Below are positions 16,766 through 44,008 of a stretch of 64,000 bases of DNA, piece after piece (position 1 is the stretch's first letter; every line of letters begins with the position of its first letter). Made by a program: the position numbers and the translations under genes. Under the pieces are notes generated by a model. The model made no database searches, had not been told where the DNA came from, and saw nothing but the letters and a program-made list of their open reading frames with translations. Source of the DNA: a virus; the IMG/VR virus record IMGVR_UViG_3300008262_000040. One strand, given 5' to 3'.

Positions 16766-16777
16766 GTGTTATTTGTT

Positions 16778-17503: not shown

Positions 17504-17514
17504 TGCGAGTTATA

Positions 17515-18351: not shown

Positions 18352-18354
18352 TGT

Positions 18355-18969: not shown

Positions 18970-19751
18970 AAATTAAAATTGTATATTGATTGTATTCCTA
19001 ATCCCAAATACCGCTTTGAGATTTTGTCTAATGTATATCCGCAAGCTTTATCATGTTCGTATTGGTGTGGATAGTGATAATTTTTAAATAAAGGTCCTTT
19101 TGGCATCAATCTAATTTCTTGACTGCGTAACAACCATTCACCGTACCAAGTAAACTCCGATCCATTCACGTTTATAATATCAGCAAACGTTATATTGTTT
19201 GGTATTAGATAATTGTCCTCTAGACTTTTCCACACTTTAGAAGACCATATTGTTGGACCTGGACCAAAATCGTATATCGCGCCTTCTCTACCGAATAATT
19301 CCATTATCTCTAACCTTTCTTTAGAAAAAGATTCATAAGGATCAAAATCAAGCGGATACTTATCCATAAATTCAAAAAAAGATTTATATTCATGACACAC
19401 TGTATACGGTGTTTTTTCATCAAACATAAAGTCTTTTATGCTAAAGTTTTTTATAAAAAAACAATCTGAGTCTATACACAGATAGTTCTCACAAAAACCC
19501 AATTTCCAAAATTGACTCTTGACTATCTGCTGTCCTTTCCACCCTTGATTGGTCGTGTCTATCTCTTCGTCTTCTAATAACACATAATTGTCAGTTCCTA
19601 AAACGCTTTCAAATAAATTTATATCAGATTTAGGAACAGATATATAAAACGGTATATTATCAGAGTTATATTTACGTATGCTTAATAATAAATCTTTAGC
19701 TCTATAAACGTCTTTATGATAACTCTTGCAATAAATTACAAAGTTATTCAT
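18966..19751 (-). CDS. DUF6492-like nucleotide-diphospho-sugar transferase fold protein
   Basis: GWKGQQIVK, YLCIDSD, SEFTWYGEW. Confidence 0.65.
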   Translation of the reverse strand: MNNFVIYCKSYHKDVYRAKDLLLSIRKYNSDNIPFYISVPKSDINLFESVLGTDNYVLLEDEEIDTTNQGWKGQQIVKSQFWKLGFCENYLCIDSDCFFIKNFSIKDFMFDEKTPYTVCHEYKSFFEFMDKYPLDFDPYESFSKERLEIMELFGREGAIYDFGPGPTIWSSKVWKSLEDNYLIPNNITFADIINVNGSEFTWYGEWLLRSQEIRLMPKGPLFKNYHYPHQYEHDKACGYTLDKISKRYLGLGIQSIYNFNL

Positions 19752-20376
19752 AGTAAGTTACAATTTTATAAGATTCTACAAAGCCTTTACCCTTTTTCAT
19801 ACATTGGAAATTTGTATGAAATCCGTCTATTACGCTGTCATTGAAATATGGTTTAGATATTTGTGATTTGAATCCTTTTATCATTCTTTTCTTAGTATCA
19901 TATACGTCGTCAATAGATATAAATAGATTTGGTATCCACGCGTCTAATGTTGAAGGGGATTTATATTGTATTATGCTATAAGTACTTATTCTGGATAGTG
20001 GAGCAGCTAAAGACGCAACAATAACATGTTCGTGATGACTATCAAACTCTGATGTGGTCATTACGCATTGATAAGCATGCTTGTGAGTATAATTCTCTTC
20101 TATATATTTTATCCACTCTTCTAATCCTCTATTTCTAAATACAGCAGTGTCGCTAAAATACAAGGTGTAATTGTTGGCATCACTCTGTAACCAAGCATTT
20201 ACGACCTCTTTATGTCTAGCTTCGCTTGTTGTTACGTCGCAGTAACCGCCCTGTGTTAAACACAGTATGTCAAAGTGCGTTTTTGGATATTTTAAAACGA
20301 CACCGGCCATGCTGTACTCTGCGTCATCTGGATGTGGAGCTAAACAAAGTACTCTGTCAAAGTTTAAAAATTTCAT
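19744..20376 (-). CDS. PIG-L/LmbE-family N-deacetylase
   Basis: APHPDDAE, DSHHEH, HxSQ-like KSQ. Confidence 0.85.
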   Translation of the reverse strand: MKFLNFDRVLCLAPHPDDAEYSMAGVVLKYPKTHFDILCLTQGGYCDVTTSEARHKEVVNAWLQSDANNYTLYFSDTAVFRNRGLEEWIKYIEENYTHKHAYQCVMTTSEFDSHHEHVIVASLAAPLSRISTYSIIQYKSPSTLDAWIPNLFISIDDVYDTKKRMIKGFKSQISKPYFNDSVIDGFHTNFQCMKKGKGFVESYKIVTYYE

Positions 20377-21233
20377 AATTTTCTTTTTAAGTTGAATATA
20401 AATCCATGAGGAGCAAAAACCCTAATACCATATCTTCTAACAAAATCTCTAAAAGCGTCAGATATGGCGTCGTGTTCGCCTTCATATGTTAAATCTACAA
20501 CATTTATCCTTAAATTATTAATTTTTATTATTGGTAATTCTGATTCTATAGTAAATGAATCTACTTCATAATAATTCATTAATTCTTTAAAATCATTTAT
20601 TATGTCTGACACGATTTCTTTTTGTCTGCTTGGAGTTGGGGTTTCTATCATCTTAACAAATTTAGCTGGAGATCCAACATAAATGGCTTTTTCTGTTGTT
20701 AAAGACTTAACTACAGTAGACTGAGCGCCTATCACTACATTATCTGCTATTTCTACACCGCTCATAATAACGGTTTTCCACCCAACAATTACATTGTTTC
20801 CTATTTTTATTTCTTTAAATGCTCTGGGATATCCCTCTAATACAGACGCCCAAAATCCGTGAGTGATTAAATCTACATCGTGAGACAATCCAACATCATC
20901 GCCTATTGTTACGGGATTTGCTAAGTTTATGTGACCTGTGTGGCAAACAGCCCTATGCCCTATTTTTAATTTAGAAAATGGAAAATTGGATGCGCCTCCA
21001 CCTATAAACATTCCACGAGAATCCGTTGGAACATTAAAGAAATAATCTCCGATAATTATCTCTTCTGCGTTTGCTTTGAATCTATCGCCTATTGTTCCGT
21101 TATCTCCTATTTCAAATCTGCCTTTAACCCTAATATCTATGTCCCTACCCAACTTTAGGTTTTTACCTAAAACCAATTCGTTGGCTTCTATGTATACGTT
21201 TCTTTCTTTGTCTTGATACACTGTTTTCTTCAT
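20373..21233 (-). CDS. Left-handed beta-helix (hexapeptide) acyltransferase
   Basis: IKIGNNVIVG...VEIADNVVIGAQSTVVK...GSPAK. Confidence 0.85.
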   Translation of the reverse strand: MKKTVYQDKERNVYIEANELVLGKNLKLGRDIDIRVKGRFEIGDNGTIGDRFKANAEEIIIGDYFFNVPTDSRGMFIGGGASNFPFSKLKIGHRAVCHTGHINLANPVTIGDDVGLSHDVDLITHGFWASVLEGYPRAFKEIKIGNNVIVGWKTVIMSGVEIADNVVIGAQSTVVKSLTTEKAIYVGSPAKFVKMIETPTPSRQKEIVSDIINDFKELMNYYEVDSFTIESELPIIKINNLRINVVDLTYEGEHDAISDAFRDFVRRYGIRVFAPHGFIFNLKRKL

Positions 21234-21880
21234 ATTATACCTCCGCTTATATTGATATTTTGACCGGTTATGTAAGGTGATTTAATTAAATACTGTACCG
21301 TATTATACAGTTCTTCTATAGTACCCCATCTTTTTGCAGGTATGTTATTTTTAATAGACTCTCTAAAAGATTCAGGAATTTTATAAGTTAAACCTCCATC
21401 AAAATACCCCAATTGTAAACTATTACAAGATATGTTTTTGTTTGCATTTTCTATAGCAACAGTTTTTACTAAACTATCAACAAAACCTTTACAACCGGCA
21501 TATATGGATGTGCTAATAACTGGATGATCTGCCAATAGAGATGATGCAAGAATAATGCGACCGAATTGTTTTTCTCTCATCTTAGATATACAACACGATA
21601 CTATATTAATAGTCCCTTTTACGTTAATGTCTATTTGTTTTTCTATTTCAGAGTAATTACTTTTATCATACTTGTGTATAAAAGAATCGTAGTTGTATCC
21701 ACTCAAGTTAATTACTACGTCTATATCATTAGTATCAAAAAAGTTTTGTACCTCTAAATACTTTGTTACGTCTACTAGTTTTGAACCTATGTTTATAACA
21801 TTGTATTCATTTTGTAAATAGTTCGAACTTAGTTGACTTCCTAATCCACCAGTTCCTCCGAATAATGCTATTGTTTTCAT
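21230..21880 (-). CDS. SDR oxidoreductase, FabG-like
   Basis: GGTGGLG, YAGCK (YxxxK), IPAKRWG, ITGQNINISGG. Confidence 0.85.
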   Translation of the reverse strand: MKTIALFGGTGGLGSQLSSNYLQNEYNVINIGSKLVDVTKYLEVQNFFDTNDIDVVINLSGYNYDSFIHKYDKSNYSEIEKQIDINVKGTINIVSCCISKMREKQFGRIILASSLLADHPVISTSIYAGCKGFVDSLVKTVAIENANKNISCNSLQLGYFDGGLTYKIPESFRESIKNNIPAKRWGTIEELYNTVQYLIKSPYITGQNINISGGII

Positions 21881-21881
21881 A

Positions 21882-22544
21882 TTATAATTTATTTAAAAAA
21901 ACTGAACAAAAATCATCGCTTGGAATAACAAAATCTTTTCCAAAAAACTGTCTAATATTTTCATAATATTTTTGTTTGTCTTCAAAAAAAGGAGGATGCA
22001 GACTTATGTGTTTTGGAACATTAATAGACTTTAATATTTCATCTTTTAATAATTCTGATTCATAACCTTCTATATCAATTTTTATCACAGATATATTATT
22101 TTCGTTTAATTGATATGTTTTTAATATCTCTTCAAAAGATATAGTTTCGCATCGAATAGAGTTTTGTGTTTTAGTATAACTAGATCCTCCGCCGCCTAAT
22201 TGCGTATTACCTATGTTTATAAAATCTTCACTAGACACAGCCTTATTAATAGCTATAATGTTTTTAAAATTGTTTAGTTTAATATTTTCTACTAAAAAAT
22301 GGTAAGCGATTGGATCTGGCTCGAAACAAATGCATTGTTTAGACAATTTTTGAGCAATTAAAGATATGGGACCTTGCCAAGATCCTATGTCCAAAAATGT
22401 CTTGTTTACGTCTAAGTGAGGTAGTATATCTCTATAAGTGTCTTCTTCCCAATTATAGTAATACTGCTTCCAGAATATATCTAATTCTGAGTCTGTTTGA
22501 TCTACTACGCTGAAATCTACTCCGAATCTTGAAAAATTTATCAT
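21882..22544 (-). CDS. FkbM-family methyltransferase
   Basis: FLDIGSWQG, FEPDP, IKIDIEGYE. Confidence 0.85.
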   Translation of the reverse strand: MINFSRFGVDFSVVDQTDSELDIFWKQYYYNWEEDTYRDILPHLDVNKTFLDIGSWQGPISLIAQKLSKQCICFEPDPIAYHFLVENIKLNNFKNIIAINKAVSSEDFINIGNTQLGGGGSSYTKTQNSIRCETISFEEILKTYQLNENNISVIKIDIEGYESELLKDEILKSINVPKHISLHPPFFEDKQKYYENIRQFFGKDFVIPSDDFCSVFLNKL

Positions 22545-22550
22545 ATATTT

Positions 22551-23237
22551 TTATTTTATTTCTACTTTTGAAGACCAATTACTGCTTTGTTTATTCATAT
22601 GACTTAAATAATGCTTCTCGTCTTCTGGAAGATTATTGGGATCATAATAAAACGGGGCGTGTTTTACAATATATGGAATTCCAACCCTAAGAGTGTTATC
22701 ACTCCATATTGGCAAAGTATTTGGTGCGTGAACCGCAAAAGTTGTATCTATTGGATGAGGATAAAGTTCTATACCGCTATCATCTATCCCGTTTGTCCAA
22801 TACGTTGATTCATAAGAATGTACCCAAGCATTTAAAGGATAACTCAAATCTATATCATCTATTTTTATAGACATACCGACTTTAGTTCTATTATACTTTT
22901 TTGCATAATATATTAGATCATCAATAAACGTATCTGGAACTGTCTCTAAGGGTATTATATCGCTATCGTTAAAAACGTACCAGTCTTTTATAATATCACA
23001 AAACTTCGTATGTCCAATCGATATCAAATCCTTAAACGCTTGATTACTGTTTGCTGTAACACTGTTATAGAACACATCTAAATTGCATTCTTTATACCAA
23101 TCTAATAAAGGTTGATATGAGGATTGATTATCAATTATAGTAATGTTATTATACCCCTTGCTAATTAGTACTTCAACCTGTTCTTTTAATGGATAGAATC
23201 TATCTCTATTTAATATAACTATTTTTGTCTGTTTCAT
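22551..23237 (-). CDS. Glycosyltransferase, family 2-like
   Basis: IIDNQSSY, NDSDI, IDTTFA. Confidence 0.7.
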   Translation of the reverse strand: MKQTKIVILNRDRFYPLKEQVEVLISKGYNNITIIDNQSSYQPLLDWYKECNLDVFYNSVTANSNQAFKDLISIGHTKFCDIIKDWYVFNDSDIIPLETVPDTFIDDLIYYAKKYNRTKVGMSIKIDDIDLSYPLNAWVHSYESTYWTNGIDDSGIELYPHPIDTTFAVHAPNTLPIWSDNTLRVGIPYIVKHAPFYYDPNNLPEDEKHYLSHMNKQSSNWSSKVEIK

Positions 23238-23243
23238 ACCGTA

Positions 23244-24176
23244 TTATTTTTCCCATTTAATAACGCCAGCTCCCCAAGTCCAACCAGATCCAACAGAACA
23301 TAGAATAAGCAAGTCACCGTTATGTATTTTACCTGACTTAACAGCGTCGTCTAAAGCTATTGGTATTGAAGCTGCGGCAGTGTTGGCATATTTGTCCATC
23401 ACTGTTATTACTTTATCAAAGGGATATTGTAAAGTTTCAGCAATAGATTGCAACATTTTTATACCAGGTTGGTGTGGTATTATGTGTTTAATGTCATGTA
23501 TGTTTACTTTTAACTTATCAAGTACTTCATTTATAGCTATTGGTAACTTAGTAGATCCAGCTCTAAAAACTTCTTTACCATTCATTATAAAAGTTGAATT
23601 TATTGGAGTGACAAATCCATCTTTTCCAGTTGGATCAGAGTGTATCTTTGTAGATAACCAACCAGTTTTGGATTTTGATAAAACTACAGCTCCAGCTCCG
23701 TCGCCAAAATAAACGCAATCTCTATGATTTTTATCTGTAATTGTAGAATATGTTTCAGAAGCGACTAATAATATATTATTGTATTCCCCGGATTCTATTA
23801 AAGATGTTGATAGATTTAGTGCATATAAAAATCCTGTACATACTGCATTTATATCGAAGCACGGACAACTTATATTTAATTTTTCTCCAATTATACAAGC
23901 TGTTGATGGAGCTATTTTATCAGGACTAGATGTTGCTAAAATCAATAAATCAATATCTTTTAAATCAATATTAGCATCTTCTACGGCTTTAATTGCAGCT
24001 TTGTAACCCAAATCAGATGTTAATTCTTCTGTTACCCAACGCCTTTCTTTAATTCCTAAATGAGTTTCTGGCCAAGTTTCATTTACCCCGAATTTTTCGC
24101 TTAACAATTTATTTGTAATAATAGTAGAAGGCACATAAGAGCCAATTCCCTTTATTGATACTTTGTATTTTTTCAT
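23244..24176 (-). CDS. fabH: 3-oxoacyl-ACP synthase III (KAS III)
   Basis: Cys-His-Asn triad: AVCTGF, IPHQPG, YANTAAASIP; FGDGAGA. Confidence 0.9.
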   Translation of the reverse strand: MKKYKVSIKGIGSYVPSTIITNKLLSEKFGVNETWPETHLGIKERRWVTEELTSDLGYKAAIKAVEDANIDLKDIDLLILATSSPDKIAPSTACIIGEKLNISCPCFDINAVCTGFLYALNLSTSLIESGEYNNILLVASETYSTITDKNHRDCVYFGDGAGAVVLSKSKTGWLSTKIHSDPTGKDGFVTPINSTFIMNGKEVFRAGSTKLPIAINEVLDKLKVNIHDIKHIIPHQPGIKMLQSIAETLQYPFDKVITVMDKYANTAAASIPIALDDAVKSGKIHNGDLLILCSVGSGWTWGAGVIKWEK

Positions 24177-24187
24177 AAAGTTCTAAA

Positions 24188-25021
24188 TTACATTATAACT
24201 CCGTATTCGTCAAACTGAGGAAGTCTTCCCCATTTTTTTATCCACTCTTTTATGTTTTTCTCTTCTGACAATCTTTGGCGTTCTGATGTTTTTCCATCGT
24301 TTTCTTCTAACCTGTGACTACCTCTGGCTCCAAAGTGCCAAACTAGAGATTTACTTGTTAATACAAACTTATACCCTTCGTTGCGCATTCTAAGGAATAA
24401 ATCCATGTCTTCCCAACTAGTGGGCGCAAATCTACCATCGTTACCTCCTATCCTATCCCAATGTTCTTTTTTTATGAGTCCACTAACCCCTTCAGTTTTT
24501 GGTATAGTAAAATCGTTGTCTCTAACGAACTCTGCAGCCCATCTTTCAAACAAACAATACTCAAAATCGTCGTAATAGGCTCCGAATATGTCTTTTGGAA
24601 CTATGACAGTACCGTAACGCTGTGGGCTTCCAAACATGTCGGGTTCAACTCTGTGACTAAACACCCAAACTGGATCACTATGTTTCAATATCTCATCGTA
24701 ACAAGCTTTGTCCCAGTCTTTGGTTACGTAAAAGTCTGAGTGGAGAAACATTATGTATTCGGTAGTAACTCCCTCTGCGCAGAAGTTCATACCGCCTCCT
24801 ATTCCCACTGGGTTGTTATTGTGGTCTATGTAAACTTCTAATCTATAATCATCTTTGTTATCTACTAACCACTTGTCCGTACCGTCTGTACAATTCTCTG
24901 CGTGAACTATGAAAGGCGCGTCTTTATAAAAGCTATTTTTTCTAACAGAGTCTATCGCTAACTTCAAATAATTTAAGTTATTGTAAGTAGAAATGCAAAA
25001 AGTTAATGGACTTGTATTCAC
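24188..25021 (-). CDS. Glycosyltransferase, family 2
   Basis: TFCISTYNN, FLHSDF, WEDMDLFLR. Confidence 0.85.
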   Translation of the reverse strand: MNTSPLTFCISTYNNLNYLKLAIDSVRKNSFYKDAPFIVHAENCTDGTDKWLVDNKDDYRLEVYIDHNNNPVGIGGGMNFCAEGVTTEYIMFLHSDFYVTKDWDKACYDEILKHSDPVWVFSHRVEPDMFGSPQRYGTVIVPKDIFGAYYDDFEYCLFERWAAEFVRDNDFTIPKTEGVSGLIKKEHWDRIGGNDGRFAPTSWEDMDLFLRMRNEGYKFVLTSKSLVWHFGARGSHRLEENDGKTSERQRLSEEKNIKEWIKKWGRLPQFDEYGVIM

Positions 25022-25029
25022 GTTTTAAA

Positions 25030-25284
25030 TTATAAACTGTTTAAATCTAAATCAGAGTTATTTGTCTTTACAATCAAATCTACGAGTGTACTAATTTGTG
25101 TGCTTTTCAACACTTTATTAGACGACGGATTGCTCCAATAGCTATTATATTCTTCTCTAGGAATAGCATTCCACACTCTATTTATTGGATTGAAATGAAA
25201 AACCCAATTAAATAAGCAATCCCTTTCGTTTGATTCTGGATAAGAATTCTCGTTGTCTTGATAAGTCTCTTGTTTTTTTCTCAT
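25030..25284 (-). CDS. Hypothetical protein
   Basis: ORF track; WVFHFNP...WNAIPR. Confidence 0.65.
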   Translation of the reverse strand: MRKKQETYQDNENSYPESNERDCLFNWVFHFNPINRVWNAIPREEYNSYWSNPSSNKVLKSTQISTLVDLIVKTNNSDLDLNSL

Positions 25285-25922
25285 ACCTTATACTTTGTTT
25301 TACCGTTCTGTTCTATTTTACTGTACAGATTGTTTTGATCTATCTGTCTGTCTAATTTCTTTGGGTGTAAGATGCAGTATGGCTCTTCTGCTGGTAGATT
25401 AACTACTACTTTAGCTCCCACTATTCTTGAATGCAATAGACCGTCCCACTTTATAGACTCGTGATTTCTATACAACCTCATTTGCCAATCTGGAAAGTTG
25501 ACCCACCCTTGATCATTAACCTGCCATCCCCATTTTTTTACCCACTCTTCTGTTAACCCCTCTACTGTGTTTATTCTGGGCATTACGAACAGATCTATTG
25601 ATGGATTGTCTTCGAGTATTGTTGGTAAGTTATCTATAAGCTCATTTGAAATCAACTCGTCTGCATCCAACTGAAGTATGTAATCGCCTTTACACTTGCT
25701 GTTTAAGTAGTTCTTTGAAGTGTGATCTCCGTCGAAAGTTCTATAATGTAAGTTTATCTGCGTCTGATACTTTCGTAGTATGTGTTTGGTCAGTTCATCG
25801 TCTGAATAATCGTCAACTACCACTATCTCGTCTTGTGGTCTCTTGTTGTACGTTAAGAACTGCAGGAGAGTCTCTACGTACTCTCCCTCGTTGTGTGTTA
25901 GTATTGCGTAACTTATATTCAT
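25281..25922 (-). CDS. Glycosyltransferase, family 2
   Basis: ISYAILTHNE, VVDDYS, QLDADE, PDWQMRLYRN. Confidence 0.9.
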   Translation of the reverse strand: MNISYAILTHNEGEYVETLLQFLTYNKRPQDEIVVVDDYSDDELTKHILRKYQTQINLHYRTFDGDHTSKNYLNSKCKGDYILQLDADELISNELIDNLPTILEDNPSIDLFVMPRINTVEGLTEEWVKKWGWQVNDQGWVNFPDWQMRLYRNHESIKWDGLLHSRIVGAKVVVNLPAEEPYCILHPKKLDRQIDQNNLYSKIEQNGKTKYKV

Positions 25923-25927
25923 AATAA

Positions 25928-26380
25928 TTAAAAATCTATGCCAATGTGCTCTAATGCGCTCAGGTAATCGTTTCCGAAGTCCTTTAAACTTGTTGAATCT
26001 GATTTGTGAGTCTTCCCTTTAAATACTGGTTTTTGTTTTTCTTCTTCTGTTAGTTCTACGTTTTTTATAGCCGACCATCTTGAGTCATCTTTGTTTGTAC
26101 CGTTCATGAATACAGTGCCCTTTTCCTGTACGTTTACGACAGACGGATACCAAACTCTTCCTTCTGCATCTACCCTCTTCATGTCTTTATACAACTCGGG
26201 CATTTCCATTTCATATGACTCGACGTCGTACTCTCCTTCTTTCATTAGATCGCTTGATTGATAACCGCAACCTAAACACAGATAAGAATTCTTTGTTTCG
26301 TTTATCTTTATTGAATAACATCCAGCCTTTTCTCCGCAAAGAGGACAATCTATAAGTTTATCGTTATTTGGGTTAATCAT
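25928..26380 (-). CDS. Zinc-ribbon hypothetical protein
   Basis: CPLC...CLGCG. Confidence 0.7.
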   Translation of the reverse strand: MINPNNDKLIDCPLCGEKAGCYSIKINETKNSYLCLGCGYQSSDLMKEGEYDVESYEMEMPELYKDMKRVDAEGRVWYPSVVNVQEKGTVFMNGTNKDDSRWSAIKNVELTEEEKQKPVFKGKTHKSDSTSLKDFGNDYLSALEHIGIDF

Positions 26381-26627
26381 TTAACAATTCTTTTTTTGGG
26401 GTTTGATGAAGTACACGTTCTGTTTGCCAATAGTTTTTAGGTACGTCAATTGTTCCTATGTCAAAAACGCCTTTACTTTCTTTATCAAATATACCTTTTT
26501 TTATTGAATTAGTATCAACTTTATTTAGAGTGTCTACTAGTTCGTCCCACTGTGCTGGTGTTGGTAAGTAGGAATTGCAAGCAGTTACAAAGCCTTTTAA
26601 CCATATCACAAATTCTTTTTCGTTCAT
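26373..26627 (-). CDS. Hypothetical protein
   Basis: ORF track; EFVIWLKGF. Confidence 0.65.
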   Translation of the reverse strand: MNEKEFVIWLKGFVTACNSYLPTPAQWDELVDTLNKVDTNSIKKGIFDKESKGVFDIGTIDVPKNYWQTERVLHQTPKKELLND

Positions 26628-26628
26628 G

Positions 26629-27942
26629 TTATTGTACTTTAGATAATTTAGGTAATTCTATTTTTTTAAGCTGCGGAAGTTTTAATTCTACTGGTTTTGG
26701 AAACGTCTCAAGATATGCATTGTTTAATAGCTCTGTCATTTTTTCCATAGAGAAGTTTGTCCTTACGTAATGACTCTGTCTTTTTGCATTATCTATGAAC
26801 TTTGAGTAGTTTTCGTAAACATCCTCTAAAGCTTTCTTAGCAGCTGATTGGTCTACTTTGAACCACTGGGACTCCGCTAACAACATGTTTTCAACTACTG
26901 CAGATCTGTGTAAGTTTTGTAGGGTTCCTGGTAGAAGTACTGTGAATTCTGGGTTTAAGAAGTCCATGTGGCCAGACCAACCAGAGGCAATGATGGGTTT
27001 TTTACACACTGAGAATTCCAATAGTGGTCTTCCAAAACCCTCACCGTGACCCAAATATACCATGGCTTTAACCTTTGGATGATTGTAAACAACGTTCATG
27101 TCTTCTTCGCTCAAGTCTCCGTGCAATAGGTATACGTTGGGCAGATCTTTAGAATTAACTGTGTTTCTTATTTGATCTATCTTCTCTAAAATTTCCTCTC
27201 TGTCCATTATGCTATTAGCCACCTTAGTAGTCTTAAGTATCAAACCAGGCTTCTTCTTCTTGTTCTTGAACGTTTCTAAGAAAAGCTTAATAGTACCAGA
27301 TACATTTTTCCTATCCTCTCCAAAATCTCCTTGTAACCAATGGCCAACGAATAGATAATTGAACTCTTCCTTTATATCATTAATAGATTCTACAATCTCT
27401 AACTTAGGAAGTTTAGTCTCTTCTATGTGAAAGTACCTGTTTAGATCAACTCCCTCGAACAACACTTCTACTGGTTTCTCTAATTTTATGTGTCTTCTGA
27501 CATTTCCTTGTTGGTCTCTTTCTTCAAATTCAGAGTTCTTGAATACATTTTTTGCGTGCTCTGAAGACACTAACGTTAAATTCATTCTATTCACTCCGTC
27601 AACCCATGATGAGTGACATATAGTGGTCTCTATACCAGCTGTGACTCCAACGCTCATTAACTTTCCTATAGGTTGAAATTCATTAGGTACTGTTATTTGG
27701 AACCAATAGTCTGGTTGTCTTGTTAGCTGACCGGTTCTATTGATTAGCGGGTTAAGCCAACCCCACTCTTGTTCATGACTCTTTATATATCCCCACGGTG
27801 TTGCTCCCCATCTTTGAGAAAGTATCTGTATGTCCCACTGATCTTTTCTTGCTTCATACAGTGACTTAACAAAGTCTCTTGCTCTTGCTCCGTACCCACT
27901 TGCGGTATCTATCGGACAACTAATTACGCATAACGGTTTCAT
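26629..27942 (-). CDS. Glycosyltransferase, family 4 (GT-B fold)
   Basis: SGYG, DRKN, GEGFGRPLLE. Confidence 0.85.
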   Translation of the reverse strand: MKPLCVISCPIDTASGYGARARDFVKSLYEARKDQWDIQILSQRWGATPWGYIKSHEQEWGWLNPLINRTGQLTRQPDYWFQITVPNEFQPIGKLMSVGVTAGIETTICHSSWVDGVNRMNLTLVSSEHAKNVFKNSEFEERDQQGNVRRHIKLEKPVEVLFEGVDLNRYFHIEETKLPKLEIVESINDIKEEFNYLFVGHWLQGDFGEDRKNVSGTIKLFLETFKNKKKKPGLILKTTKVANSIMDREEILEKIDQIRNTVNSKDLPNVYLLHGDLSEEDMNVVYNHPKVKAMVYLGHGEGFGRPLLEFSVCKKPIIASGWSGHMDFLNPEFTVLLPGTLQNLHRSAVVENMLLAESQWFKVDQSAAKKALEDVYENYSKFIDNAKRQSHYVRTNFSMEKMTELLNNAYLETFPKPVELKLPQLKKIELPKLSKVQ

Positions 27943-27943
27943 A

Positions 27944-29395
27944 TTAATATACTAGTTTGTGTGTGATTTGTTTTCTTGGTAATTTTTCTATCTTTATAAG
28001 TTCAAATTGCTTTTTTGGTTTCCACGTATCGAATGTATTCTCTATAGACGATACAACATTCTTGCACATGTTTGCTGCCGTCATCATAGATTCATCAGAG
28101 GTTACCCACTCTCTACCTGCCATACCCCTTTGTTTTCTCTCTTCTGGTGATAGATTATAAACTTCCTCAATTGCCTTTGCCACATCTCTAAAATCACAGC
28201 GATCGTCAAGTATGTACGGAGTTGGTATCGATCCAACTATACTTAAATTAGTCGGAAATACAGGTACTGCCCATTTTCCTGACTTCTTGTATCTACCGTA
28301 GTGATTAGACGGGAAATCCTTATTCAATTCAACCCATTTACCAGTCTCGTCTTCGAAACGCATTTGATCTTGCATTCCACCAGTAACGTTACCTATGATC
28401 ATCGTTCCTGCCATCATTGATTCAGTTAGTGACAATCCCCAACCCTCGTTAGAACTTATCAAAGCTGTAACGTCTGATACGTTATACATTAGATTTAATA
28501 CTTGAGTTGGTATCACACTTTGCTCAAATTGCACTTTTTGATACTCTGGATCGCAGAGCAATTCTACTACTGCATTTAGATTTGTTCCATTCTCGTCCAT
28601 AGCCTGAGTGTGTAATAATAGCTTACACTTCTTCGCCTTCTCTTTTCCTATGCTATCGCAAAATAGCGCGTAAGCTGCAATAAGATCGGAGGTACACTTT
28701 CTGCGTATATTCCTAGCGTTGTAGAATACCACAAACTCTGGTTGATCTTCTCCAAATAGATTCTTCTTATAAGACTGTAAATTTTCGTACTCATCTTTCA
28801 TGTATTCATTTATTGGGAAAAATAGCTTTTCGTTGATACCATGTGGTACGTACGTAATCACCTTGTCTTTAGCTTTGTCTCCAAGGACCAACTCATGAAT
28901 ATTTTTTGTCTGTTTTGATATTGACATTAGCAAATCGCAAGACTCGTAATAAGGTTTATTGTATAATGGAGCTGGGTAATCATCCCATATAGAAAGATAC
29001 AGAATGGGAATTTTCTTCCTAATTTCATCTTCCATTTGAAATAACCACACCCAATATCTAGGATCTGTGAATAACATGATAGCATCAGGGTTTTCTATGT
29101 CTATCAACTGTCTTACAAGTTCAGGAGTTCCGTAACCGTTACTTGGATATAAAGTAACTGATGCATCTGGTATACCTGCGTTGTTTCCTGTGTCTTGAGA
29201 TAGATCTAACCGCTTTCCATATTCTGGATGGTTAATACCAGCTCCTACGTTTACCCAATTGAATCTATGAGAAGTACCTACTACTATCTCCCTTGCCATT
29301 GTTGCTATCCCACTTGTGAAACGAATATCGTCGCACATTAGTAAGATCTTCTTTCTTTTTGATTTTTCGATGTAACCTTCTGGTAGTTTTTGCAT
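27944..29395 (-). CDS. Glycosyltransferase, family 4 (GT-B fold)
   Basis: YVPHGIN, RNIRRK, NEGWGLSLTESM. Confidence 0.9.
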   Translation of the reverse strand: MQKLPEGYIEKSKRKKILLMCDDIRFTSGIATMAREIVVGTSHRFNWVNVGAGINHPEYGKRLDLSQDTGNNAGIPDASVTLYPSNGYGTPELVRQLIDIENPDAIMLFTDPRYWVWLFQMEDEIRKKIPILYLSIWDDYPAPLYNKPYYESCDLLMSISKQTKNIHELVLGDKAKDKVITYVPHGINEKLFFPINEYMKDEYENLQSYKKNLFGEDQPEFVVFYNARNIRRKCTSDLIAAYALFCDSIGKEKAKKCKLLLHTQAMDENGTNLNAVVELLCDPEYQKVQFEQSVIPTQVLNLMYNVSDVTALISSNEGWGLSLTESMMAGTMIIGNVTGGMQDQMRFEDETGKWVELNKDFPSNHYGRYKKSGKWAVPVFPTNLSIVGSIPTPYILDDRCDFRDVAKAIEEVYNLSPEERKQRGMAGREWVTSDESMMTAANMCKNVVSSIENTFDTWKPKKQFELIKIEKLPRKQITHKLVY

Positions 29396-29658: not shown

Positions 29659-30570
29659 TTATTCTTCGTTTTTCTTATTGCACAAATCTGGAGTGTCTCT
29701 GTACGGGCACCACTTGCAACCCTCTAAGTTCTTTTTGTAAACCCGTTCAGTGTTATACTTTGCGTCAGGCGTGAAACACTCCTTTATAAAATTCTCTAAT
29801 CTGTTATAAGCGTCTTTGACTTTCTTAGTCTTATTCGCTGGTGAAAACTCCTGTATTCTTGGGATTGGAAAATCAAGATTCTCGTATATCTTCCTCTTTA
29901 CTATGAAGAACTTAACGTCTATCTTATCTTGATCTATATTTAGAGCTTTTGAATAGAAGTGTTTGTAAAGCAGTATCTGACTAAGTTTAGTTGTATCTTT
30001 CTTCTCCTTGTCTGTCCAACCCCGAGTAGAAGTTTTAATATCGTATATGGTGTATGTGTCAGTGTTTTTGTGATAGAGTATGAAGTCTATGTAACCTTGC
30101 AACAATACGTTTGGACTATAGTCTGTTACCGATTGTAACACTGGAATTTCTATACCAACTAACTCTGTGTCCTTCTTTGAGAAGTACTTCGCTCTGTTTT
30201 TCTTGAACCACTCTAATGTAGTAGAGCCATCTTCTATGAATTCCTTTATTTCTTCCTTTGTTGTGTAATGCTCGTTGTTATTGTCTTCTAAGTCCTTCTT
30301 GTAATTCTCTATCATTCTATTTTCAAGATGCTCAGATAGATCGATATCATTTGCAGCAGTTATTGATTGATTGTACATGACTTCTAGATAGTGCTGCAGA
30401 GTTTCGTGTAACGATGTACCAAATAAGAGATGGATACCCGGTTTGAAAACCTTCTTCTTCTTTACATAAGCCAAATACCACTGATACTCACACTGAGAAT
30501 ACATGGAGAATTGACTGTACGATACTCCTTTTTGGTATGCATAATTTATTTCTAGTTTAGCTTTTTCCAC
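29659..30570 (-). CDS. PD-(D/E)XK nuclease (RecB/Cas4-like exonuclease)
   Basis: SYSQF..Y.QC, GYIDF, IYDIKTS, Q..LY, CKWCPY...C. Confidence 0.85.
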   Translation of the reverse strand: MEKAKLEINYAYQKGVSYSQFSMYSQCEYQWYLAYVKKKKVFKPGIHLLFGTSLHETLQHYLEVMYNQSITAANDIDLSEHLENRMIENYKKDLEDNNNEHYTTKEEIKEFIEDGSTTLEWFKKNRAKYFSKKDTELVGIEIPVLQSVTDYSPNVLLQGYIDFILYHKNTDTYTIYDIKTSTRGWTDKEKKDTTKLSQILLYKHFYSKALNIDQDKIDVKFFIVKRKIYENLDFPIPRIQEFSPANKTKKVKDAYNRLENFIKECFTPDAKYNTERVYKKNLEGCKWCPYRDTPDLCNKKNEE

Positions 30571-30817
30571 CTATAACCTTTTTAATTTTTTCTAAATACA
30601 GTATCGCGTCTTGTAGTTCCATTTGCATATGCTCTATCCAATTATAAAGACTTAGATCGTTTCTGTCTAGATCTGTTCCATACTTTTGTTTTCCTATGCT
30701 AGCTCTACTCACAAAAGAATCTATGACAGAGTCTACTATAGAATCAGTCTTTAATATTGTTCTAGAATCGTTTGGACCCAGCTGTTTAAAACTGGTTTCT
30801 TTTCTATAATCTCCCAT
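30557..30817 (-). CDS. Small all-alpha protein, possible NTP pyrophosphatase-like
   Basis: GKQKYGTDLDRNDL...ELQDAILYLEK. Confidence 0.5.
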   Translation of the reverse strand: MGDYRKETSFKQLGPNDSRTILKTDSIVDSVIDSFVSRASIGKQKYGTDLDRNDLSLYNWIEHMQMELQDAILYLEKIKKVIGGKS

Positions 30818-31058: not shown

Positions 31059-31515
31059 ATTTTTTTGTTTTTATGTAATTATATAAATCTAACAAACTTC
31101 CGTCAAAGTTTTCCATAATAGATTCTAGTTGATCTTTATTTACCGAAAAAGTTTTAACAAATGCATTCGTAAGCTTTTCCATTCGCTTTCTTTCTTCTTT
31201 CTCGTAGTCCTCTAGCAACTTACGTCGTCTTTCCATGAACAGCTGTCTAGCATCGTGCTCTTCCTCTGAGTTTTTACACGTCTTAAGCTTATCCTCCAAC
31301 AGATACATTTCGTGTTCGGCCTGGTAATAGTAGTCAGAGGGGTCGAAATCGCCGTGAACTATCCTCTCGTACAGGGGATGTTTGCTACTCAACTCTTCTT
31401 TTGCCTTATACCTACGGTGCCAATAATAGGGATTGTAAGAAGCTGGTGTTAACTTTGCCAACTGCTCTTCTAAGAATTCTCTTGATAGTCTTGGTAAACT
31501 CATTAGTCGTTCCAT
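31048..31515 (-). CDS. Hypothetical protein
   Basis: ORF track. Confidence 0.7.
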   Translation of the reverse strand: MERLMSLPRLSREFLEEQLAKLTPASYNPYYWHRRYKAKEELSSKHPLYERIVHGDFDPSDYYYQAEHEMYLLEDKLKTCKNSEEEHDARQLFMERRRKLLEDYEKEERKRMEKLTNAFVKTFSVNKDQLESIMENFDGSLLDLYNYIKTKKYEQ

Positions 31516-32159
31516 TTAATGCCCTTGTTAAAATGTCTTTCGTATATGTGTAAGTTGGTTATAAGCCAATGCATGTCTCCTACTTCGTATCCAGTCTTCT
31601 CTGATACTAACTCCATAAGTTTTGAGAACGTATAAAAGTCGTTACAGAATCCGAACCAAAGGTCTATGCTTCTTGCAAATACGCTAAGCTGTAGTTTATT
31701 ATCTCTAACGTAAAAGTTAAGGACCATATTACAGGGCGTATCGTATTGGTATCTATCTAGCTCGTCAAGATCGTAATGGACAACAACGGCTCGTCTTGTA
31801 TTTGGATCTTTTTTGAGGAGATCTATTACCCGTTCCAATTGGTTGTTCTTGTTCCAGAAGTAGCCATAATTGCTATTCACTTCTGTAGTACCTGCTACCA
31901 TCATGTTCTTCCATATCTTTGCCCTTTCAGATATTTCGCTTGCGTCTCTATCTCCTTTGAGATACCAATCCCACTCGTAATCAGCGTAATCTTGCTTGAA
32001 GTTTCTCTTAGGATGAGTAACTACTCTTTCAAACACATTTTCTACGCTAAAGCTAATGTTGAACAGCGCTTTTGTTCCTGCGAAGTTTGGGTCTGGTATC
32101 TCGTTGTCTAAGTATTCGTAAAACGCTTGAAACGCGTGGGTAACATTTTCAAATAACAT
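31503..32159 (-). CDS. Thymidylate synthase-family enzyme, probable dCMP hydroxymethylase
   Basis: TPC catalytic Cys; RSIDLWFGFCND has Asp at the Asn177-equivalent site; NLHIY. Confidence 0.8.
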   Translation of the reverse strand: MLFENVTHAFQAFYEYLDNEIPDPNFAGTKALFNISFSVENVFERVVTHPKRNFKQDYADYEWDWYLKGDRDASEISERAKIWKNMMVAGTTEVNSNYGYFWNKNNQLERVIDLLKKDPNTRRAVVVHYDLDELDRYQYDTPCNMVLNFYVRDNKLQLSVFARSIDLWFGFCNDFYTFSKLMELVSEKTGYEVGDMHWLITNLHIYERHFNKGIKWND

Positions 32160-32619
32160 GTTTTTCTACTTTTATGAATTTTTTTAATAGTTCTATGCCT
32201 GATATATCTCTGTACTCTTCCAAATATACAACTCTTTTTATACCTGATTGTAAGATATATTTCGAGCACTCTATGCAAGGGGACAGGGTGACGTAAAGAG
32301 TCGAGTCTTGTACAGCGTTTCCAGTCTTAGCGGCTTTTATCACAGCATTCATTTCTGCGTGAAGCACCAAACTCTTTGTCTTGTTATCAGTGTCCTCACA
32401 ACAATTGTCCATGCCAGCTGGCGTTCCATTATACCCCATGCTCATGACGTTACCGTCTTTTTCAAGTATGGCTCCCACTTTACTCCTTTGACAATGTGAA
32501 AGCGTCGATACAGCAATGGCCATGGTCATGTACACACCATCTAATCGTCTTTGCTTAGAAGACTCCTGTGCTTCCAAATCCTCCGGAACCCCTTTCTGTA
32601 TTCTTTTCTGGTAATTCAT
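32149..32619 (-). CDS. dCMP deaminase (start uncertain)
   Basis: GYNGTP, HAEMNA, SPCIEC. Confidence 0.9.
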   Translation of the reverse strand: MNYQKRIQKGVPEDLEAQESSKQRRLDGVYMTMAIAVSTLSHCQRSKVGAILEKDGNVMSMGYNGTPAGMDNCCEDTDNKTKSLVLHAEMNAVIKAAKTGNAVQDSTLYVTLSPCIECSKYILQSGIKRVVYLEEYRDISGIELLKKFIKVEKHVI

Positions 32620-32992
32620 CTACTAATTCTACGTTTTCGAAGTTAATTGGAATCAACACGAACTGCATGATCTTTTGTTCTGGCTGAATTGTTTGCGATT
32701 GGTTAGATACGTTAAAGACGTGTATGTGAATCTCTCCTGTGTAATCTGGGTCCACTAACTGAGCTCCGTAGATTAGACCCTGTTTTGTTGATACACCGCT
32801 CTTATTCATAGCCACCAACCCGTATCCATCAGGTACGTTTGCTTTGATACCGCTTGGGATCAGCACCGATTCACCTGGCTGCAGAGTTTTTGGTTCTTGA
32901 ATGTAGTCTTTAGGCAGGAAAAAGTCTATGCCTGCGCTGTCTGGTGTGCCTCTGGAAGGCGTCTTTACGTCTCTTACTTTTTTGATTTTCAT
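32555..32992 (-). CDS. dut: Trimeric dUTPase family
   Basis: AGIDF, KSG, DPDYTGEI, ERGSGGFGSTG; start refined to MKIKKV at 32992. Confidence 0.9.
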   Translation of the reverse strand: MKIKKVRDVKTPSRGTPDSAGIDFFLPKDYIQEPKTLQPGESVLIPSGIKANVPDGYGLVAMNKSGVSTKQGLIYGAQLVDPDYTGEIHIHVFNVSNQSQTIQPEQKIMQFVLIPINFENVELVDELPEKNTERGSGGFGSTGVF

Positions 32993-33255
32993 TGTTTTTC
33001 TTTTTTGTCTTTTTTTCTTTTCCATTCGACAGTTACGTAGGTGCCAAAGAAAGCTCCTATCACTGCCGCAATTATAAAGCTCCTGTCTTCTGTGTATTGG
33101 GTTACAGCAAATGCACCGAATAGGTAAATGAGAGATCCATAAATACCTGACATAAAACTGTTTCTCTCTTCGATTTTAATGAAGTAAAGGGCCCAACACA
33201 CGTCTGCTAGGAATAGCGTAAGAGCTACTCCCATAAATGTAATAATGTAAGTCAT
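32989..33255 (-). CDS. Small membrane protein (three TM)
   Basis: Start refined to MTYIITF at 33255. Confidence 0.6.
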   Translation of the reverse strand: MTYIITFMGVALTLFLADVCWALYFIKIEERNSFMSGIYGSLIYLFGAFAVTQYTEDRSFIIAAVIGAFFGTYVTVEWKRKKDKKEKQ

Positions 33256-33260
33256 AACTT

Positions 33261-33539
33261 TTATTTTTTGGTTGATAAATACTGGTCTAACGACGCCATG
33301 TAGGCAATAGCGTCTAGGTAGTTGTCGTACTTGTAATTCCAAGAAGCTCTAGATAGTTTTAAGGCTATAAGTACGTTGTAAGCATCTTGTGTTGTAATTT
33401 CCTTCCTTGACATTTCAGAGGCTATTCTAGCCGTCTGTTCCATGCCTTCTATGAATTGTCCGTACATGCGCTCTTTCTCTTCGTTTCTTTCGAAGACTAT
33501 GTCATGAGCTTCTTGCAATATGCTTTTTTTATGTTTCAT
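33261..33539 (-). CDS. DUF6378-like protein
   Basis: ILQEAHDIV...YG...LKLSR...DNYLDAIAY. Confidence 0.7.
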   Translation of the reverse strand: MKHKKSILQEAHDIVFERNEEKERMYGQFIEGMEQTARIASEMSRKEITTQDAYNVLIALKLSRASWNYKYDNYLDAIAYMASLDQYLSTKK

Positions 33540-33639: not shown

Positions 33640-34035
33640 CTACTGATAAGACTTCCCGGTGCCTTTGTATATGAGTTTAATTGCCGATTTTGGTATTGCT
33701 TCAAATGTAATGATGCGCTTATCTTGCACCTTAAAATTTGGATCATTATACCAAGTATTGTTAAGACCTGTTGTATCTATCTGATAGATGTCATCATCGT
33801 AGGTAGAATCCCACCAATCTTTTTTATTGTCAGAATTAACCGCAAATATAACTTTGCCATCAATTTTGGTATCGGTTAACCATGCTTCACTCTTTCCTTG
33901 AGGTATCAGTCCAACAGAATTTATCTTATCTCTAAAAATAGGATTAGACGTATGATAAATATATCTATTTACTTTAACAGGTATTAGGTTTTTTGATTTT
34001 TTTTCTAATATAAATAGATCAATTAGCTTTATCAT
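33640..34035 (-). CDS. ADP-ribosyltransferase-fold protein (Tpt1/KptA-like)
   Basis: YHTS...I.SVGLIP, IP.SAI; start MIKLIDL at 34035 follows a late motif. Confidence 0.55.
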   Translation of the reverse strand: MIKLIDLFILEKKSKNLIPVKVNRYIYHTSNPIFRDKINSVGLIPQGKSEAWLTDTKIDGKVIFAVNSDNKKDWWDSTYDDDIYQIDTTGLNNTWYNDPNFKVQDKRIITFEAIPKSAIKLIYKGTGKSYQ

Positions 34036-34078
34036 AGTAATAGTTTTATTTATATAAATACGAAATAAGATGATAAAA

Positions 34079-34966
34079 TCAATAATCGCAGTACTTTTTA
34101 AAGTCACCGAAGTCTCCCCATACTCGGTTCGAATCTACATCGCTTGGTTTTAGATTTGGCTTCCTCATTGCTGGTGCAACGTTCCAAAAGTAGTCTCCCT
34201 GTTTCCCGTGGCTTTTTAACATTTCCCATCCCTTAGCATCGTAAGTTAAAACGCAATCAAATGGCGGTTTAAATCTAGCATCCTTAGTGAAGGCTTTATC
34301 GTAGCTGTAGAAGTTTGCACGACCTAACTCTCCCTCTTGAATATTTCTGGCTACTGCAACTGCGTTGAACTCAGTTTTTGGTAGAGCTATCTGTAAAGTA
34401 CGGGACAAAACCCCTGTAGAAAACACACTCCACATTGTTTTTATGTCCATATCTTTGAAGTTATCGTAAAACACTCTAACTCCACCTGCCACAACCATCT
34501 CGTGTTTCAATCCAAATGGAAGGTATTTTGCTCCCATCTTCTCAGCGAACTTCTTTGCCCATATGTTTGCGGTTGGCATGGCTGGTATCCTTACGAACAA
34601 CGGTATACCACCTTCCTCTATAGCTGTGAGTTGATGCTCTGAGGCTTTCTCTGAAGCTGGCATTACTAAGTACAGTTTCTTATTGTACTTCTTTGCCAAA
34701 TAACATAAAGAGTACGGAGCGTATCCTGTCCTCGGTGCTACATAAACTAACGAGTCTTCCTTTACTTGAGAAATAAAGAAATCTGCCATCTTTGTTTTAG
34801 TACCGTATTTGAATTCACCGTCGTCTATTACGTTGAAGCCATCTATTTGCTTTTTTACGAAAGTGTAGTCGTGATTATAATCTTTAGTGATGTTTAGATA
34901 GTACTCGAGATCCCTACCGTTTGTTTGGTCAAGACTTTCTTTTGTGGTGCACTTATTTAAGAACAT
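34079..34966 (-). CDS. PLP-dependent fold-type II enzyme (TrpB/cysteine synthase/ACC deaminase-like)
   Basis: GTKTK (putative Schiff-base Lys), GYAPYSL, FSTGVL phosphate loop, YDAKGW, FWNVA. Confidence 0.65.
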   Translation of the reverse strand: MFLNKCTTKESLDQTNGRDLEYYLNITKDYNHDYTFVKKQIDGFNVIDDGEFKYGTKTKMADFFISQVKEDSLVYVAPRTGYAPYSLCYLAKKYNKKLYLVMPASEKASEHQLTAIEEGGIPLFVRIPAMPTANIWAKKFAEKMGAKYLPFGLKHEMVVAGGVRVFYDNFKDMDIKTMWSVFSTGVLSRTLQIALPKTEFNAVAVARNIQEGELGRANFYSYDKAFTKDARFKPPFDCVLTYDAKGWEMLKSHGKQGDYFWNVAPAMRKPNLKPSDVDSNRVWGDFGDFKKYCDY

Positions 34967-34986: not shown

Positions 34987-35012
34987 AAAAAAAGCGGCGA
35001 TTAAGCCGCTTT
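34987..35012 (-). terminator. Rho-independent terminator after groEL
   Basis: AAAGCGGC-TTAATC-GCCGCTTT followed by a T run on the minus strand. Confidence 0.8.
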
Positions 35013-40402: not shown

Positions 40403-42299
<1,897 letters not shown>

Positions 42300-42386
42300 T
42301 TTGCCTATAAATTTTATTTTTTAAACAATATAATATACCTTAGAGATTTCTCTCTAAAAAATTTTAATAATAAGTTCCGCTATTTA

Positions 42387-42587
42387 TTACTTGGGTAGAG
42401 TGCCTTTACTGTTATCAGTTGAGGCAATTGAAGACGGATTAGATTTCGCTTTACTAGCAGCGTTATTGCCAGTGCGACCTTTCCTTAACACTTCGCTTAA
42501 TATGAATCCTACGTATTTTATGGGGTTTTCAATTATTCTGTAACTATCCCCTTTTGGTGCCATGTTAAATTTACTAAGCAAACTCAT
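42387..42587 (-). CDS. Hypothetical protein
   Basis: ORF track; late motif at 42608-42615. Confidence 0.55.
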   Translation of the reverse strand: MSLLSKFNMAPKGDSYRIIENPIKYVGFILSEVLRKGRTGNNAASKAKSNPSSIASTDNSKGTLPK

Positions 42588-42631
42588 AGTTAATCCGTTT
42601 TGTAATAATAAATATGCTAATTTTCGATTGT

Positions 42632-44008
42632 TTACAGACCTAACTCAAAAAACTTGCTAGATAAGTACTTTTTCTCATCGTTGTCTATTCTACTGAACCC
42701 AGAAGGGGCTGAACTCGTATCTACCTTAAGCTCGGAATCGTCCATTTCAGAAGCGTCTATGTCTATGTGTCCATTAGCTGTATTTATTTTAGCAGAAAAA
42801 GTCATACCATCGCTTCCAAATCTGTTTTTGATAACGTGAATTCTACCGGTTCCAGCGAGCTTATCTCCCCTTTTTCTTGATAGTGACATAGCAAAGTCGG
42901 CTATCATGATCTTATCGTAAGAACCAGCTATCTTATCGGCCTCGATAATGTCGTCTTTACTACCCATACGATTAACCTGACTAACTGTCCAAATTGGAGT
43001 CCTTATCTGCCTTGCCAAACCCTTGATTGAAGTATACACATCATCAATTTGATCTTTTCTTTCTGATGACTTAGACTTAGATCTCAGCAAGTCAACGTAA
43101 TCTATAATGACTAGATCTGGCTTGTGTCCAAGAGTTACGCACTTCTGAATGTGGGTCTCTATGCTAGAGGGCGTGGTTTTTCCCATTGGGTATTCTTTAA
43201 TGATTAACTTGCCAGGTAATGAGTTAATGGTCTCCTCTATCAATTTTCTACTCTCAGTCTTATGAATATTTTGAAAGTCTATTCCTGTGAGTATAGAATC
43301 GTAACGCTTACCTACATACTCTTGAGAAAGTTCTAGCGTGTAGTGACATACTGTGTATCCCATTTTAACTGCTGTGGCTCCCAAGTTAATTAAGAACCAA
43401 GATTTACCTCCACCTGGAGAACCCAATACCATGCCTAGATCACCAGCTCCGAGGCCTCCCATTAATAGGTCGTTGATGTGTGGCCAAATAGTTGGTACAG
43501 CGCCACGCTCTTCTAGTCTATATCTGCTTTCTAAGTCTTTTTCGTATTCGTGTCCTAAATCTCTGCTCTGTCCTGCTTTAAGAGCTTGATCGATCATAGA
43601 TCTGATGTCGTCGTACTGACCTTTTGTAAGCAACTCTACGGAGTTCATCAAAGCCTTTTTCAATTGTTGGTTCTTACAGAAGTTACTAAACTCTGTCTCA
43701 ACGTACTCTTGATCCTCGTTGATTGCTTTTAACGCCTCTTTAAGCTGCTCCACTATTGTTACTTTCAATACGTCGTTCTCAATCTTCTTTACTTCAACAG
43801 ATAAATACTCAGGAGTTGGATTTGCGTGGTACTTTGAGTAGTACTTTAGTGTTTCCTCAACTATCCACTTGTGAGCTGGGTTATCGAACTCCTCTGGGTT
43901 TAATAGATCGTAAACCCCGTGTAAGAACTCCTTGTGTTTTAGAAGCGACGATATTACCTTTATCTGAAAAGATACTCCGTACGCTTGTAAAGTGTTTAAT
44001 GTACTCAT
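42632..44008 (-). CDS. DnaB/gp41-like replicative helicase
   Basis: GSPGGGKS, YTLEL, IIDYVDLL, SQVNR, KNRFG. Confidence 0.9.
   Translation of the reverse strand: MSTLNTLQAYGVSFQIKVISSLLKHKEFLHGVYDLLNPEEFDNPAHKWIVEETLKYYSKYHANPTPEYLSVEVKKIENDVLKVTIVEQLKEALKAINEDQEYVETEFSNFCKNQQLKKALMNSVELLTKGQYDDIRSMIDQALKAGQSRDLGHEYEKDLESRYRLEERGAVPTIWPHINDLLMGGLGAGDLGMVLGSPGGGKSWFLINLGATAVKMGYTVCHYTLELSQEYVGKRYDSILTGIDFQNIHKTESRKLIEETINSLPGKLIIKEYPMGKTTPSSIETHIQKCVTLGHKPDLVIIDYVDLLRSKSKSSERKDQIDDVYTSIKGLARQIRTPIWTVSQVNRMGSKDDIIEADKIAGSYDKIMIADFAMSLSRKRGDKLAGTGRIHVIKNRFGSDGMTFSAKINTANGHIDIDASEMDDSELKVDTSSAPSGFSRIDNDEKKYLSSKFFELGL

Follow-up and report, generated by a model that had tools for sequence, protein, structure and literature searches.

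A stretch of viral DNA of 64,000 nucleotides (IMG/VR record IMGVR_UViG_3300008262_000040), referred to here as the window, encodes on its minus strand (positions 31503-32159) a 218-amino-acid member of the thymidylate synthase superfamily. This enzyme, hereafter the synthase, is very probably a deoxycytidylate (dCMP) hydroxymethylase, predicted from its sequence and its modelled fold to make 5-hydroxymethyl-dCMP (hm-dCMP) from dCMP, since all the published signature residues of such enzymes are present. The genome of its source, an uncultured, Immutovirus-like lake phage whose polymerase shares 52% identity with that of Flavobacterium phage immuto_2-6A, likely contains modified cytosine. That a phage should encode a dCMP hydroxymethylase is expected from known biology, and the significance lies in the module around the enzyme rather than in the enzyme itself. 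The less ordinary part of the system consists of a pyridoxal 5'-phosphate (PLP) enzyme and its SGNH-like and helical partners, and these companion genes point to a subsequent, non-sugar decoration of the base by a chemistry without described precedent.

The synthase and its substrate

Asn177 of Escherichia coli ThyA selects deoxyuridylate (dUMP), whereas Asp179 of T4 gp42 selects dCMP. The synthase matches the family profile PF00303 (expect value, E, 5e-29) and carries RSIDLWFGFCNDF at residues 163-175, where Asp174 aligns with Asn177 of ThyA, gapless across the block (phmmer), and with Asp179 of gp42 (taken from NC_000866). The alignment thus confirms the original prediction of a cytosine-selecting Asp in a short homologue, and this residue is invariant in all 121 sequences compared (the query plus the 120 top homologues, from a family with more than 1,000 members in public data). 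Against a 96% identical homologue the ratio of nonsynonymous to synonymous substitution rates is 0.044, indicating purifying selection. In a control panel of enzymes taken from named genomes, Asp occupies the Asn177 site in all six cytosine-type enzymes (gp42 of T4, 44RR and RB69, the Xp12 enzyme, phage G gp319 and the VPE25 enzyme) and Asn occupies it in those of SPO1, ViI, Ag3, M6 and phiW-14 and in every ThyA; the substrate classes of Xp12, G, VPE25 and 44RR are presumed or follow annotation, and those of the remaining controls come from papers. Experiments have shown that Asp at this position determines cytosine selection (PMC6400193, PMC5175136). Asp174 and the control panel therefore support the further claims of the original prediction, that the enzyme is specific for dCMP and that modified cytosine is likely in the genome.

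Other residues bear on the product. Hydroxymethylases are marked by Ser94 and Tyr96, an acidic residue three positions before the catalytic Cys and a missing C-terminal tail (PMC6400193). The synthase has Asp140, three positions before Cys143, as well as Ser96 and Tyr98, all invariant, and its chain stops 12 residues past Tyr206, so that the tail of ThyA is missing. The catalytic Cys143 and Glu62 (the equivalent of Glu60) are present within a thymidylate synthase fold, as are Arg122/123, Arg163, Ser164, His204 and Tyr206. The model of the protein (predicted local distance difference test score, pLDDT, 96.8) finds its best match in the PDB in the CMP hydroxymethylase MilA, with a template-modelling (TM) score of 0.87-0.88, compared with 0.77 for T4 gp42 and 0.71-0.78 for ThyA. 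MilA shares both Asp signatures but prefers ribo-CMP through Ala176 and Lys133; deoxyribose is selected by the equivalents of Ser169 and Arg123, a pair that the synthase carries as Ser164 and Arg122 (PMC5175136).

From these residues we infer the activity by homology to T4 gp42. Cys143 would attack C6 of dCMP while Asp174 selects and protonates the cytosine, methylenetetrahydrofolate would donate the carbon, and Asp140 with Ser96 and Tyr98 would deliver water, not hydride, to yield hm-dCMP. This product would be phosphorylated by a kinase, probably that of the host, and the phage polymerase would then incorporate 5-hydroxymethylcytosine (hmC), so that it replaces part or all of the cytosine in the DNA.

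Several observations weigh against this assignment and the pathway that it implies; where they concern whole genomes, they rest on two relatives of the phage with a completeness rating of 100%, G001 (synthase 91% identical, 179.6 kb) and G002 (183 kb). The residue following the catalytic Cys is Asn144, as in five dUMP hydroxymethylases, and is Thr in T4, 44RR, RB69, G and VPE25; this residue stays a caveat. A tree of thymidylate synthase homologues gave no supported grouping of the synthase family with T4 gp42, its deep nodes being unsupported. Besides the synthase, G002 has no ThyA or ThyX and would thus use the enzyme of its host. In neither complete relative did we find a deoxynucleoside monophosphate (dNMP) kinase (PF21448, PF02223 and PF13521 were searched, and a divergent kinase could be missed) or a gp56-like deoxycytidine triphosphatase (dCTPase, PF08761), the latter being absent from relatives G001-G004. 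Two steps of the T4 pathway, among them the phosphorylation of hm-dCMP, are consequently without an assigned gene, which allows for a partial substitution of cytosine.

Some of these points would suit an end product of 5-hydroxymethyluracil (hmU), which we regard as improbable. In that case the enzyme would use dUMP or both substrates, or a deaminase would turn hm-dCMP into hm-dUMP, and the PLP and helical proteins would go on to hypermodify thymidine in the manner of ViI or M6. Asn144 and the missing ThyA of G002 agree with such a product, the neighbouring deaminase and dUTPase correspond to the dUMP-supplying cassette of hmU phages, and thymidine hypermodification is the only known setting of PLP enzymes that accompany amino acid:DNA transferases (PMC8989533). 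However, Asp174, at the experimentally established position, is absent from every uracil-type control; the dUMP hydroxymethylases of SPO1, ViI and M6 have Asn there and have only Asn144 in common with the synthase. Thr is found at position 144 in the more distant, basal members of the family (BF503P2 gp42 and locus L063), so that Asn seems to be derived inside the Asp clade. Several relatives keep a ThyA of their own: G005, G007, G015 and G016 encode a canonical, Asn-type enzyme, so that the short enzyme does not serve them as thymidylate synthase, and G001, the nearest relative, has the N-terminal part of ThyA at a contig edge. No 5hmU-DNA kinase (5-HMUDK, PF18748) was found in G001-G004, in a test in which ViI scores E 1e-117, and a search with the profile of the PLP enzyme did not find ViI gp226 or M6 gp52.

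It is quite unlikely that the enzyme is a dCMP methylase of the Xp12 type or a dCMP hydroxylase of the RB69 gp42 or AfhB type. Both share Asp174, and AfhB is the fourth fold match of the model (TM 0.84). The Xp12 methylase, however, has Asn at the site of Asp140, and the hydroxylases are diagnosed by D169N (PMC13326640), where the synthase has an invariant Asp166. Of the three products that had been envisaged, hydroxymethyl, methyl and hydroxy, only the first agrees with Asp140, Ser96/Tyr98 and Asp166, and the other two are set aside. Finally, an unusual short thymidylate synthase within a dTTP supply unit of an AT-rich genome is most unlikely: source annotations as thymidylate synthase, the classic thymidylate (dTMP) trio that it would form with deaminase and dUTPase, a guanine-cytosine content of 36% and the lack of another thymidylate synthase in the window or in G002 speak for it, and Asp in place of both Asn177 and Leu143, the missing C-terminal tail, the true ThyA of relatives and a fold nearer to MilA speak against it.

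Nucleotide-pool neighbours

The synthase gene belongs to a run of minus-strand genes that starts at 34966 with the PLP enzyme; all features of the window given below lie on this strand. We compared 65 related loci, 40 of which reach groEL and are called anchored here; they are partly redundant and related, and thus not independent. In these loci the module is positioned between groEL and a PD-(D/E)XK nuclease gene.

The original prediction placed the synthase in an operon with a dCMP deaminase, a dUTPase-family enzyme and DUF6378. Pfam matches bear out these three identities, and co-transcription is suggested by the overlapping or abutting open reading frames (ORFs) on the same strand; no RNA run was found to contain this DNA. 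The dCMP deaminase (32149-32619; PF00383, E 2e-25; phrog_174) occurs in all 40 anchored loci and would supply dUMP for thymidylate synthesis. The dUTPase (PF00692, E 7e-22) spans 32555-32992 from its likely start, with a longest ORF from 33025, and its sequence scores 78 bits against the dUTPase profile and 23 bits, below the cut-off, against the dCTP deaminase-like one; by these profiles it is an ordinary enzyme of the trimeric type. The slot of the dUTPase holds either this enzyme alone (37 of 65 loci; 29 of the 40 anchored) or a 100-residue MazG-like protein alone (27 and 11, respectively), never both, which suggests that the MazG-like protein takes over the role of the dUTPase, with DUF6378 as a constant component apart from this exchange. 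In T4, deaminase and dUTPase supply dUMP for dTMP, and their presence does not show removal of dCTP. Most simply, the two enzymes would feed dUMP to a separate ThyA, of phage or host, and keep uracil out of the DNA.

DUF6378 (33261-33539; PF19905, E 8e-12) is the constant partner of the synthase, being present in 61 of the 65 loci and in every anchored one. It is fused to the thymidylate synthase domain in 13 proteins, all of the Asp type, and in others to dUTPase. This constancy and these fusions make it the best candidate for a dCTP pyrophosphatase, a role in which it would remove dCTP; judging from context, we hold this to be possible, at somewhat less than an even chance. The protein gave no match in the PDB, the Atlas or profile searches, including a comparison with MazG-like (all-alpha NTP pyrophosphatase) families. 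Distant DUF6378 proteins are also found in mycobacteriophages, so that hmC specificity does not extend to the entire family. In selected metagenome contigs with modified cytosine, thymidylate synthase domains have been reported alongside dCMP deaminase and PRA-PH domains (PMC8670742). The idea that the neighbours purge dCTP is not supported: the dUTPase is a plain one, a search of the complete relatives gave no gp56-like dCTPase, and DUF6378 is a candidate by context.

Between DUF6378 and the dUTPase lies an ORF for an 88-residue hydrophobic protein (32989-33255), which the original prediction did not name. It appears to be accessory, as it occurs in 10 of the 65 loci, and it has a weak match to UbiA below the cut-off.

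The PLP enzyme and candidate tailoring partners

At the head of the gene run, 34079-34966 encodes a fold-type II PLP enzyme of 295 residues (phrog_7093), a candidate tailoring enzyme of the modified base that the original prediction left out, as it did the SGNH-like and helical partners. The alignment shows an invariant Lys57, the Schiff-base Lys, and an STG phosphate motif, and the model (pLDDT 92) matches threonine deaminase and serine racemase in Foldseek with TM scores of about 0.6. The enzyme is present in 44 of the 65 loci (31 of the 40 anchored), and elsewhere its clade occurs in fusions with DNA methylase domains and with an HMUDK_hel domain. Two further proteins recur: 31 of the anchored loci encode an SGNH-like protein and 18 a helical transferase-like one; for the helical gene only the anchored count is used, the count over all loci (32) being inflated by misclassified synthases. 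Their genes are not in the window, and both are in G001 and G002, in G001 in a separate cluster about 100 kb away.

The SGNH-like partner, 310 residues long, has a weak match to Lipase_GDSL (E 0.008) together with a GDSH/GN/H pattern that is invariant. Its N-terminus had raised the possibility of a T4 beta-glucosyltransferase, which we rejected, as there was no such Pfam match and a PDB search came back empty. The helical domain is fused to the synthase in nine loci, and the HMUDK_hel domain of the PLP-clade fusion matches the helical family by profile (hhalign 93%, E 3e-7), a single and transitive link. Comparisons of the helical partner with M6 gp51, the HMUDK_hel domain of M6 and 44RR gave no match, direct comparisons with the transferases of M6, ViI and phiW-14 failed, and G001 and G002 have no Pfam match to ADDT, HMUDK_hel or aGPT-Pplase3. 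Given these failed comparisons, the helical protein as a transferase is a lead.

We give about an even chance to a further decoration of hmC, which would serve as a handle for the PLP enzyme together with the SGNH-like and helical proteins encoded elsewhere in the genome, with escape from host restriction as the likely purpose. More tentatively, Immutovirus-like freshwater phages may have an undescribed non-sugar hypermodification of cytosine, with DUF6378 as a new dCTPase family. The SGNH-like protein would activate or acylate the hydroxymethyl group in place of a DNA kinase, the glycosylase-fold helical protein would transfer a group and the PLP enzyme would trim it, such that amino-acid chemistry known from thymidine would be transplanted onto cytosine to give an undescribed base. 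The decorations of hmC that we found described in the literature are sugars and a carbamoyl group, and those derived from amino acids are on thymidine and need a DNA kinase. If true, a kinase-free version on cytosine would add to the known DNA bases and enzymes, and might also give DUF6378 a functional assignment. The cultured immuto genome has none of the hydroxymethylase module and encodes DpdA and 7-deazaguanine genes, which fits interchangeable systems of DNA protection.

Variants of these genes were seen in other loci. In L034 and L035 an HNH endonuclease gene separates the two ORFs into which the fusion of synthase and helical domain is split. A second helical protein of 290 residues, weakly related to the first (E 7e-5), is encoded in L042 (8122-8991), L104 (1-540) and L100 (2253-3518), and lies in the same cluster as the first in G001 and G002. 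An MBD4-like HhH-GPD glycosylase, which could repair deaminated hmC, stands beside the SGNH-like gene or the synthase in L100 (636-1400, from G002) and L042 (6163-6957) and is absent from G001. The small phages L053-L057 combine an Asp-type synthase and DUF6378 with a gene for a 250-residue S-adenosylmethionine methyltransferase-like protein, and not with the PLP and SGNH-like genes. In the window, an ORF at 33640-34107, between the PLP gene and DUF6378, is an insertion absent from this slot in most relatives; it has no Pfam or PHROG match, and its YHT..I...GL.P pattern recalls proteins of the ADP-ribosyltransferase fold.

Known systems and the surrounding region

The pathway lies outside both the T-even system, as neither gp56 nor a kinase was found, and the thymidine system, as its synthase is of the cytosine type and a DNA kinase is missing, and it borrows from each. 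With the T4 pathway (gp42, cd, td, gp56, gp1 and the alpha- and beta-glucosyltransferases) it shares every catalytic signature residue and the short C-terminus of gp42, a dCMP deaminase and, in several relatives, a separate ThyA. It differs in the low identity of the synthase to gp42 (about 25%) and in Asn rather than Thr after the Cys, in a trimeric dUTPase or MazG in place of gp56, in the lack of a detected dNMP kinase, in its partners DUF6378 and the PLP enzyme, and in a module without a T4-type DNA glucosyltransferase. The thymidine hypermodification of ViI, M6, PaMx11 and phiW-14 uses a dUMP hydroxymethylase, 5-HMUDK, an amino acid:DNA transferase and a PLP decarboxylase (PMC8989533). Common to both systems are a hydroxymethylase of the thymidylate synthase family linked to a fold-type II PLP enzyme and a helical domain, here distantly related to HMUDK_hel/aGPT-Pplase1; the present system differs in its cytosine-type synthase, the lack of the 5-HMUDK kinase, a PLP enzyme from another clade and an additional SGNH-like protein.

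Among cultured phages, the Aeromonas phages 44RR2.8t, 31 and 25 (ORF233c) have gp42, of the Asp type in 44RR, and a 795-residue protein of 44RR2.8t combines the SGNH-like domain seen here with a region of weak similarity to HMUDK_hel. However, 44RR2.8t belongs to the T4-like Straboviridae, has no match to the PLP enzyme of the window, and its helical part is not detectably like that of the relatives; we found no literature on its DNA chemistry. A sodium:solute symporter, possibly an importer of the transferred group, precedes the SGNH-like fusion gene of 44RR2.8t (L097, 2408-6388). The closest cultured homologue of the synthase, gp42 of Bacteroides phage BF503P2, is 44% identical with the same Asp140, Asp174 and NSNYG, and is a deoxycytidylate 5-hydroxymethyltransferase by annotation. 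BF503P2 differs as a small phage of 53 kb with a second Asp-type homologue and a P-loop kinase; its two Asp-type homologues (L073, 4115-4921 and 6995-7675), the first of which lacks the Glu62 equivalent, occur with this kinase and a dUTPase.

The window DNA is found in lake and freshwater metagenomes and belongs to a large phage, with sheath, tube, PolA, GroEL/GroES and ribonucleotide reductase genes all on the minus strand. A terminator-like hairpin after groEL (34991-35012) is a plausible upstream border of the module; it is a consensus match, in a scan whose sites were no more numerous than in shuffled sequence, and a promoter scan stayed at chance level. On the other side, 30557-30817 encodes a small protein of 86 residues, which had been described as a nearby NTPase-like gene. 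The gene is real, but it has no Pfam match, profile comparisons to MazG-like and NTP pyrophosphatase families were negative, and a link to the module is not supported: it occurs in 16 of the 65 loci, upstream of the PD-(D/E)XK nuclease, and tracks the nuclease, not the synthase. In immuto, a DUF3310 gene takes its position.

Two family 4 glycosyltransferase (GT4) genes adjoining the module (26629-29395) were rejected as evidence for glucosylation of hmC, since both are found in immuto (55-65% identity), which has no synthase of this kind. They are part of a glycan island (15566-29395) with GT2 genes, methyltransferases and a FabH-like gene (23244-24176). A similar island is present in immuto, which has no hydroxymethylase, so that it probably serves virion or surface glycans.

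The ribonucleotide reductase ORF (40455-44008) has an atypical C-terminus that overlaps an ORF at 40403-40675, a possible frameshift or assembly error. Avoidance of cytosine-containing 6-mer palindromes is weak, with observed to expected ratios of 0.98 in the window and 0.87 in the immuto region that are too noisy to use. Most palindromes are not depleted in the window (1-64000); GGATCC is strongly so, with one site against about eight expected.

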